23,727 bases of DNA from a virus (Duplodnaviria; Heunggongvirae; Uroviricota; Caudoviricetes), in IMG/VR virus record IMGVR_UViG_2671180283_000006; one strand, given 5' to 3'. Positions within the stretch are counted from its first letter, which is position 1; the number at the start of each line of letters is the position of its first letter. The notes beneath the pieces were generated by a model that was given only the letters and a program-made list of their open reading frames with translations, had not been told where the DNA came from and ran no database searches. Below are positions 1,663-1,972 of this stretch, in pieces. A program made the position numbers and the translations under genes.

Positions 1663-1738
1663 GGCCCTTTAGCTCAGTGGTGAGAGCGAGCGACTCATAA
1701 TCGACAGGTCGCTGGGTCAAATCCAGCAAGGGCCACCA
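1663..1738 (+). tRNA. tRNA with CAU anticodon (ileX/ileZ-like tRNA-Ile2 or Met), possibly divergent
   Basis: 76 nt; acceptor GGCCCTT/AAGGGCC, D stem GCTC/GAGC, anticodon loop CTCATAA, T stem GCTGG/CCAGC, encoded CCA. Two mismatches in the anticodon stem and G at position 54 are atypical. Confidence 0.6.
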
Positions 1739-1739
1739 A

Positions 1740-1816
1740 CCGTCACCAGTTCATCAGGAAAGAGCGTCAACCCTTTAAGTTGAGTGTGCGAGGTTCGAGT
1801 CCCCGGTGGCGGTCCA
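1740..1816 (+). tRNA. tRNA-like sequence, anticodon UUU by position (Lys?), atypical
   Basis: 77 nt; acceptor CCGTCAC/GTGGCGG (one G-U), D stem GTTC/GAGC, perfect anticodon stem TCAAC/GTTGA with loop CCTTTAA, T loop TTCGAGT, CCA end. Starts with C, has C at position 33 and an A-C mismatch in the T stem; may be a degenerate copy. Confidence 0.4.
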
Positions 1817-1818
1817 GT

Positions 1819-1894
1819 GCCGACTTCGCTCAGTAGGTAGAGCAACTGACTTGTAATCAGTAGGTCACCAGTTCGATTCCGGTAGTCGGCACCA
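1819..1894 (+). tRNA. tRNA-Thr (UGU), thrU-like
   Basis: 76 nt clean cloverleaf; anticodon stem ACTGA/TCAGT with loop CTTGTAA; T loop TTCGATT; CCA end; near-identical to host thrU as recalled. Confidence 0.8.
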
Positions 1895-1897
1895 TAT

Positions 1898-1972
1898 GCG
1901 GGCATCGCATAATGGCTATTACCTCAGCCTTCCAAGCTGATGATGCGGGTTCGATTCCCGCTGCCCGCTCCA
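1898..1972 (+). tRNA. tRNA-Gly (UCC), glyT-like
   Basis: 75 nt; acceptor GCGGGCA/TGCCCGC, anticodon stem TCAGC/GCTGA with loop CTTCCAA, T stem GCGGG/CCCGC with loop TTCGATT, CCA end; near-identical to host glyT as recalled. Confidence 0.8.

Follow-up and report, generated by a model that had tools for sequence, protein, structure and literature searches.

A Four-Gene tRNA Cassette Behind Q

The DNA considered here (the window, i.e., the whole analyzed stretch of 23,727 nucleotides, nt) belongs to the viral record IMGVR_UViG_2671180283_000006 of IMG/VR, which is assigned to the tailed viruses (Caudoviricetes). Between the late-gene antiterminator gene Q and the lysis genes, it carries a cassette of four tRNA or tRNA-like genes (Table 1), for which the original prediction, made from the letters alone, had proposed cloverleaf folds, a spacing of 1-3 nt and encoded CCA ends. 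ARAGORN returns exactly four tRNA genes in the 23.7-kb window and, together with the sequence itself, agrees with that proposal to the base: the spacers measure 1 nt (A1739), 2 nt (GT) and 3 nt (TAT), and an encoded CCA ends all four genes. The cassette is the ileZ-X-thrU'-glyT' cassette of lambdoid Escherichia coli and Shigella prophages, with gene 2 in the X slot, and is both common and already annotated. At least 80% of it is present in 601 of 5,426 complete E. coli genomes (~11%); chance occurrence of the cluster is not an issue, because the cassette recurs in hundreds of genomes. As a frequent, annotated variant of the tRNA module of Shiga toxin (Stx) phages, the cassette itself is of little import. 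The lead worth following is gene 2, with a covarying body over several genera and a mostly non-canonical loop.

Table 1. Genes and RNA features from RusA to the holin, in window coordinates.
Feature	Position	Strand	Evidence
Gene 1, ileZ-type tRNA-Ile2, anticodon CAU	1663-1738	+	ARAGORN; Rfam 60.9 bits; PGAP "tRNA-Ile"
Gene 2 ("X", type B), argN-derived tRNA-like gene, UUU, C33	1740-1816	+	ARAGORN "Lys(ttt)"; Rfam 31.3 bits
Gene 3, tRNA-Thr(UGU), thrU copy with A9C	1819-1894	+	ARAGORN; Rfam 69.8 bits
Gene 4, tRNA-Gly(UCC), glyT copy with U11C	1898-1972	+	ARAGORN; Rfam 56.8 bits
RusA, upstream of Q	327-701		Pfam scan
Late-gene antiterminator Q, upstream boundary	698-1519	+	Pfam PF03589 Antiterm, E = 6e-55
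tR'-like intrinsic terminator (7-bp stem, 6-nt loop, T run)	1600-1626	+	Terminator scan
Structured non-coding RNA element (three compound hairpins, intrinsic terminator end)	1973-2205	+	RNAalifold, terminator scan
Holin, downstream boundary, start of the lysis genes	2265-2480	+	Pfam PF04971 P21 holin S, E = 9e-36

All four genes score above the gathering threshold (29 bits) of the tRNA covariance model RF00005 in Rfam. Gene 2 is not returned when the whole window or positions 1500-2300 are scanned, but it passes when scanned alone (85 nt; E = 1.8e-5), so that its absence from large scans is an artefact of the speed filters. By its Rfam score, gene 2 is a marginal tRNA. Existing annotation varies accordingly: the Prokaryotic Genome Annotation Pipeline (PGAP) labels cassettes with a consensus gene 2 as tRNA-Ile, tRNA-Lys, tRNA-Thr and tRNA-Gly, while PhiR47_1 and similar phages in GenBank list Met, Lys, Thr and Gly. 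The tools thus give a mixed answer as to whether the original prediction of four genes holds: ARAGORN finds the same genes and bounds, but PGAP calls only Ile, Thr and Gly on DNA that is 100% identical over window positions 1600-2050. In practical terms, whether gene 2 is called hinges on the choice of tool and on speed filters.

The canonical elongator tRNA has U8, U33 and T54 as near-universal core nucleotides. Gene 2 departs from this core with C8 and C33 and gene 1 with G54, whereas all three positions are retained in genes 3 and 4, of which the former has C9 and the latter the mismatch C11.A24. Folding of single tRNAs by minimum free energy is uninformative, as it yields no cloverleaf even for thrU-like sequences; the energy of the cloverleaf was evaluated instead.

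Identity of the Four Genes

By its sequence, gene 1 is a tRNA-Ile2 and not a tRNA-Met: it joins the anticodon CAU to an ileX-type body (66/76 identity to K-12 ileX), and lysidine formation is predicted. The pairs C4-G69 and C5-G68, which are determinants for TilS, are visible in the sequence. The ileZ annotated in phage Stx2a_WGPS8 and the copy in the window differ by two bases. At the level of the family consensus, gene 1 matches ileZ of Stx phages completely and is the same in both cassette architectures described below. The original prediction had read two anticodon-stem mismatches and a G54 in this gene, and these are indeed present (A27.C43, G28.A42, and G54).

Genes 3 and 4 had been recognized as near-identical to thrU and glyT of the host. 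Gene 3 matches K-12 thrU at 75/76 positions, A9C being the sole difference, with an identical anticodon arm; gene 4 matches K-12 glyT at 74/75 positions, where the sole difference, U11C, turns the pair U11-A24 into C.A. The family consensus equals thrU exactly in the case of gene 3 and glyT exactly in the case of gene 4. The view of the cluster as two host-like and two divergent genes therefore stands for the Thr and Gly copies, but not for gene 1, which, at 66/76 identity to ileX, is host-like as well.

Gene 2 is, by its scaffold, a derivative of argN, but not an argN. Genes 1 and 2 align to ileZ and argN with 84.5% identity, which supports the comparison with the ileZ-argN-argO clusters of Stx phages suggested at the outset. 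C1-G72, U73 and the acceptor, D and T arms are those of argN, and the differences are mostly compensatory: the pair 7-66 changes from U-A to C-G, 30-40 from G-C to A-U, and 27-43 from Y-G to U-A. The pair 51-63 is an A.C mismatch. The 5' C and the C33 that had been read from the letters are both found, and the anticodon loop is CCUUUAA (C32, C33, UUU) instead of the canonical CUUCGAA of argN (Arg, UCG). ARAGORN assigns the anticodon UUU, but the body of the gene does not resemble lysT of K-12 either, since it has U73 and not A73, and its acceptor, D, anticodon and T stems are unrelated. A73 is a minor identity element for lysyl-tRNA synthetase (LysRS). C33, C1-G72 and U73 are fixed in all E. 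coli type B genes, the family to which gene 2 belongs.

Probable Late Transcription and Codon Supply

The genes of this region follow the order RusA, Q, terminator, tRNAs, terminator, holin, DUF1327, lysozyme and terminase; beyond the terminase, Pfam matches identify a portal, a ClpP-capsid fusion and lambda-type tail genes. The placement of the cluster between tR' and the lysis genes was correctly predicted, given the hairpin and T run at 1600-1626 behind Q and the P21-type holin downstream. Q is annotated as "antitermination protein" by PGAP in two related loci, L002 and the near-identical backbone of L149, and the holin is named essD in the latter. The position of a terminator directly behind Q matches the pR'/tR' arrangement of lambdoid phages. 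A simple scan of positions 1520-1600 found no sigma-70 consensus promoter, and pR' is placed in this interval by inference. The cluster thus appears to belong to the late transcript that a lambdoid prophage makes under the control of Q, with a putative pR' in 1520-1600. The leader (1520-1626) also gives sub-threshold Rfam matches to Trp_leader (25.6 bits) and isrK (16.3 bits), in keeping with a short pR'-tR' leader RNA comparable to the 6S RNA of lambda or to IsrK of Salmonella.

The best explanation for the cassette, in which we infer all functional steps (expression, processing and charging), is that it provides tRNAs that read AUA, ACA and GGA while the late genes are expressed, with a gene 2 derived from argN and with products that are weakened in the window copy; the probability of this reading is put at roughly 60%. 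In the lysogen, the cassette would be silent or weakly expressed. Upon antitermination by Q, RNA polymerase would pass tR' and transcribe it, RNase P would cut the polycistronic precursor at each 5' end, and the trailers of 1-3 nt would be trimmed to the encoded CCA. Lysidine formation by TilS would convert the product of gene 1 into an Ile2 tRNA that reads AUA, and the tRNA products would then supplement host decoders of the A-ending codons AUA, ACA and GGA that are rare or encoded by a single gene. Gene 2, if it decodes at all, would be a lysine-type (UUU) tRNA on a foreign body, and otherwise a non-decoding tRNA-like RNA. Codon compensation is the usual view of phage tRNAs (PMC7946995).

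Codon usage, which the original prediction had proposed to compare, points in the same direction, if modestly. The open reading frames (ORFs) of the window use ACA, GGA and ATA at 12.3, 13.4 and 5.8 per thousand codons. In K-12, the corresponding values are ~7, ~8 and ~4 per thousand, such that the three codons are ~1.3-1.7 times commoner in the late genes of the window than in K-12.

Several points weigh against this explanation. The codon enrichment is modest and measured against approximate K-12 values. Codon supply does not explain gene 2, because AAA and AAG are common codons served by many host genes (the host has six tRNA-Lys(UUU) genes, of which five were seen in K-12). Moreover, gene 2 has C33 in place of the near-universal U33, and U73 where the host tRNA-Lys has A73, and it appears not to be selected for decoding, because family relatives in other genera have non-decoding loop sizes. 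The assumed weakening, finally, contrasts with a tRNA block that, within the window lineage, is still some 10 times better conserved than the flanking DNA.

A possible link between the cassette and the programmed frameshift of the tail chaperones G and GT, in which tRNA-Gly and tRNA-Lys would act at GGGAAAG, was considered and rejected: the G/T junction lacks the lambda heptamer. There, at 14869-14883, the G gene (Pfam Phage_TAC_2) ends in CCG GAA AAG TCC TGA, with the T frame (Pfam Phage_tail_T) at -1. For the G-T frameshift expected here, tRNA-Lys would have to slip on A AAG. No other tRNA is implicated, and no connection to the cassette is apparent.

The Derived Haplotype of the Window Copy

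The suggestion that genes 1 and 2 may be degenerate or unusually structured resolves into two layers. One is shared by the family (C33, C1-G72, and U73 in gene 2), while the other is particular to the window lineage (in gene 1, G54 and the additional mismatch of the anticodon stem; in gene 2, C8 and U11). In total, the window copy carries seven substitutions relative to the family consensus: C42A and U54G in gene 1, C4U, U8C and C11U in gene 2, A9C in gene 3 and U11C in gene 4. C42A adds the mismatch G28.A42 to the family-wide A27.C43. All seven affect base-paired or tertiary-core positions, without any compensating change, for which reason the four products of the window copy are probably weakened, that of gene 2 the most. 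Rfam scores fall by 11.6, 13.1 and 4.0 bits in genes 1-3, from 72.5 (consensus ileZ), 44.4 (consensus type B; argN itself scores 53.6) and 73.8 bits, the score of gene 4 being that of the window copy alone. The cloverleaf energies of window copy and consensus are -25.8 vs. -29.0 kcal/mol for gene 1, -17.2 vs. -22.3 for gene 2, -21.5 vs. -21.5 for gene 3 and -22.8 vs. -27.5 for gene 4.

These changes might also be read as neutral decay toward pseudogenes of a cassette that has fallen out of use in the window lineage. This would account for the location of all seven substitutions and their lack of compensation, for the lower scores and the lower cloverleaf stability of genes 1, 2 and 4, and for the loss of the PGAP call for gene 2. 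It would also fit the nested haplotypes of the sampled loci, in which the changes accumulate stepwise from the consensus through an L046-type and the L037 haplotype to the one shared by the window and L002. In addition, one locus with an identical cassette, L002 (E. coli UK_Dog_Liverpool, 3666-5828), is a deleted prophage remnant, in which a truncated holin is joined directly to a tail-tip gene; the state of the prophage was inspected in this one genome among those 100% identical over the cassette. However, the holin, lysozyme, terminase, portal, capsid and tail genes of the window all have full Pfam matches, and three of the four tRNA genes still score 57-70 bits. The location of seven out of seven changes at "critical" positions is weakly non-random, because most tRNA positions are critical. 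The slow divergence of the tRNA block, at a pace about 5-10 times below that of its flanks, also speaks against decay: the window differs from L037 at 1/310 positions in the tRNAs and at 37/1082 in the flanks, and from L046 at 3/310 and 42/883, respectively. Weakened need not mean dead, given this conservation, although recombination may inflate the divergence of the flanks. A decaying relic is a somewhat unlikely account of the cassette, and the supply of decoders, probably weakened ones, is preferred.

The X Family of Gene 2

The scaffold of gene 2 is not confined to E. coli. Next to ileZ-, Thr- and Gly-like genes, X is found in phages and prophages of Escherichia, Shigella, Edwardsiella and Yersinia as well as in many unassigned IMG/VR contigs; it is also present in genomes of Salmonella diarizonae and Citrobacter, with no neighboring tRNA gene in the stretch examined. 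The family sample comprises 51 unique sequences (179 copies) and is biased by the sequence patterns with which it was drawn. Among the 51 unique sequences, the stems are paired in at least 96% of cells, save for the pair 51-63 (38/51) with its recurring A.C mismatch. Covariation is evident at 7-66 (UA 28, CG 21), at 27-43 (AU 23, UA 12, CG 11, UG 4), and at 30-40 (AU 35, GC 14).

The anticodon loop, by contrast, takes 22 forms, of which only that of argN is canonical; the others have C33, or are 6 nt or 11 nt long. E. coli type B has CCUUUAA and a third E. coli type an 11-nt loop, while 6-nt loops include CAUUAA, CAUCAA, CUUGGU, CACGGU, CAGGAU, CUCGAU and UUUGAG. The Yersinia phage YeP1 has the loop CAUUGCC, with A33, and the gene is annotated as "tRNA-Pseudo-TTG" in its record. 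In one subgroup, loop positions 3-5 are UUA or UCA and thus complementary to stop codons. Different loops even occur on near-identical bodies: L156 (CUUGGU), L173 (CUUGGG) and L175 (CAGGAU) share all 68 non-loop bases, from which L181 (CUCAGU) differs at one D-loop base. Among the IMG/VR, GTDB and GenBank loci, loops of 6 nt or 11 nt or with A33 were also noted in the X genes of L151, L126, L130, L132, L192 and others. In L175, an IMG/VR locus, the ileZ-like gene is heavily mutated and missed by ARAGORN, while the adjoining X and Thr genes are intact, which suggests a stronger constraint on X than on ileZ in this lineage. Taken together, the pattern of the family indicates selection on the tRNA body and not on a particular anticodon, and argues against both simple pseudogene decay and ordinary decoding for most members.

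The possibility arises that gene 2 is no decoder either. X would then be a phage tRNA-shaped RNA selected for its body, for instance a decoy or inhibitor or some other mimic, while the other three genes would remain ordinary tRNAs. Besides the paired and covarying stems that bear so many loops, the exchange of loops on near-identical bodies and the intact X beside a badly degraded ileZ in L175, such a role would account for the fact that X has stayed beside ileZ, Thr and Gly in phages of three genera (Escherichia, Edwardsiella and Yersinia) and in many unassigned IMG/VR contigs, and for the pseudo-tRNA annotation in YeP1. However, the loop of E. coli type B is exceptional: it has the normal 7 nt, is one base away from CUUUUAA of the host tRNA-Lys and is stable over 51 copies, which fits either a decoder or a specific mimic. 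Furthermore, the sampling is biased by the search patterns, and the same picture would result if the loop were neutral and the body constrained for some other reason. Nor was a partner or target found: no conserved reverse complement that might form a "kissing" interaction with the loop was detected within -1.5/+3 kb for the 22 loop variants. One apparent relative, L131 (Acidimicrobiales), was discarded as a chance match to the search pattern. Overall, a non-decoding gene 2 seems somewhat unlikely.

The more specific proposal, that gene 2 represents an undescribed family of phage RNAs in the shape of a tRNA, which are no ordinary decoders and might serve as decoys or inhibitors of anticodon-loop-directed defense nucleases or of other tRNA-binding enzymes, or alternatively as scaffolds whose codon specificity keeps changing, is an unlikely one. 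In the library searched, no literature on the X family was found, and none on ileZ/argN/argO or on 6-nt anticodon loops. The nuclease PrrC cuts tRNA-Lys 5' of U34. As a decoy, the gene 2 RNA of E. coli would imitate the loop of tRNA-Lys but present an altered residue, C33, beside the PrrC cleavage site.

A Possible Anti-Defense Role and Nuclease Targets

A related idea leaves gene 2 its decoding function: the cassette might replace host tRNAs that have been destroyed by nucleases, with gene 2 as a resistant surrogate for tRNA-Lys(UUU) and gene 3 as an extra tRNA-Thr(UGU). Indeed, the cassette pairs a UUU-anticodon gene with Thr(UGU), and these are the two prime targets of AriB of PARIS (PMC12409363), which cleaves at U36AAUC|A41 (PMC12409363). 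Phage T5 escapes the PARIS system with tRNA variants changed at positions 39 and 41 (PMC12409363). Gene 2 reads UAAGUU where lysT and the Thr gene of the window read UAAUCA, and thus differs at positions 39-41, the same region in which the resistant tRNA-Lys of T5 is altered (U39A, A41C; PMC12409363). The location of C33 beside the PrrC site agrees with this idea, too, and the evasion of nucleases by phage tRNAs through changes in the anticodon loop is a published hypothesis (PMC10264068). Gene 2 is therefore predicted to resist AriB. The Thr copy, however, keeps UAAUCA within an anticodon arm identical to that of thrU and should be as cleavable as its host counterpart. In addition, Ile2 and Gly(UCC) are not known targets, the charging of gene 2 with lysine is questionable in view of U73, the foreign body and A51.C63, and relatives with 6-nt loops in other genera cannot replace any decoder. 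Anti-defense is thus quite an improbable purpose of the cassette compared with codon supply in late expression. Should gene 2 prove to act as a decoy for nucleases or as a resistant surrogate, the tRNA arms race with host defense would extend from T5-like phages to temperate lambdoid phages, Stx phages among them.

Cassette Exchange and Neighboring Elements

To collect the architectures in which the cassette occurs, IMG/VR was scanned with the 3' end of gene 2. In the resulting sample, two main arrangements occur, ileZ-1-X-2-Thr-3-Gly (~50 loci) and ileZ-7/9-argN-13-argO (~55 loci), the numerals giving the spacers in nt. Nucleotide diversity, computed over 39 different loci, amounts to 0.005-0.02 for the tRNA genes of the cassette and to 0.24-0.30 for the mosaic flanks. 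Window positions 1-12000 are not colinear in any complete E. coli genome of the collection. The backbone of L149 (E. coli GPEC657) is 99.6% identical over 96% of this segment, but it has a different insert between Q and holin (1863-4338, corresponding to window positions 1663-2264), which consists of ileZ, an unannotated X variant of 81 nt (type C, with the 11-nt loop), argO and the moron genes DUF3927 and TolA-like. Because the same Q and holin backbone carries a different cassette, the gap between the two genes is a site of cassette exchange, where annotators may expect different sets of tRNA and moron genes.

Three compound hairpins occupy the space between the Gly gene and the holin (1973-2205), together with a single-stranded stretch rich in GU and an intrinsic terminator (stem at 2180-2195 plus T run). 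RNAalifold, applied to six homologues from different cassettes (including L049, L164, L167, L173 and L181), predicts 66 pairs, 17 of them with compensatory double changes, and the structured RNA accompanies the tRNA cassette in 22 sequence variants. No Rfam family matches 1973-2205 at threshold. The element is hence a candidate phage small RNA. Farther downstream, between the lysis and terminase genes, the minus strand contains an ORF of 230 amino acids (4417-5109), which has no Pfam match and is annotated as a hypothetical protein in L149.

Comparison With Known Systems

Among host tRNAs, gene 2 may be compared with tRNA-Lys(UUU) of the lysT family, with which it shares UUU and A37-A38 and whose loop CUUUUAA differs at one position. 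It departs from this tRNA by C33 for U33, U73 for A73, unrelated stems and the A.C at 51-63. Genes 3 and 4 correspond to thrU and glyT of the K-12 operon thrU-tyrU-glyT-thrT-tufB, in the same order and orientation. In K-12, the arrangement is thrU-8 nt-tyrU-116 nt-glyT-6 nt-thrT, so that, as the original prediction had stated, tyrU separates thrU and glyT in the host and is absent here. The cassette lacks thrT, the 116-nt spacer and the host flanks as well, and each copy has a substitution in the region of the D arm. No homology to the host flanks was found around the Thr and Gly genes; the mature tRNA sequences alone are shared. The proposed capture with rearrangement, i.e., from the thrU-tyrU-glyT operon with subsequent loss of tyrU, is plausible, given that thrU and glyT are neighbors in the host, that their order is kept and that tyrU and the host spacers are gone, although the shared mature sequences do not reveal its route.

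The tRNA clusters of T4 and T5 provide a second parallel, as they consist of closely spaced phage tRNA genes that, as in T4, are processed from a common precursor. These clusters also include Lys(UUU) and Thr(UGU) types, which counter PARIS in T5, and show differences from the host tRNAs in the anticodon arm, as does gene 2. In contrast to T4 and T5, the present cassette belongs to a temperate lambdoid prophage, its Thr anticodon arm is undiverged, and its Lys-type gene combines the scaffold of an Arg tRNA with C33.

The closest counterpart is the ileZ-argN-argO cassette of Stx phages (AP012540.1, Stx2a_WGPS8), of which the cassette is, by its gene content, a sister in the same slot between Q/tR' and the holin. 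Both lie in the late operon behind Q and tR', begin with the same gene (the consensus is identical to ileZ, the window copy two bases off), continue with homologous second genes on a C1-G72/U73 scaffold, and are tightly packed with encoded CCA ends. They differ in the loop of the second gene (CUUCGAA there, CCUUUAA here, with compensatory stem changes at 7-66 and 30-40), in the genes that follow (argO, UCU, there; thrU- and glyT-like genes here) and in the spacers (7-13 nt there, 1-3 nt here). No stx genes follow the present cassette; the conserved structured RNA takes their place.

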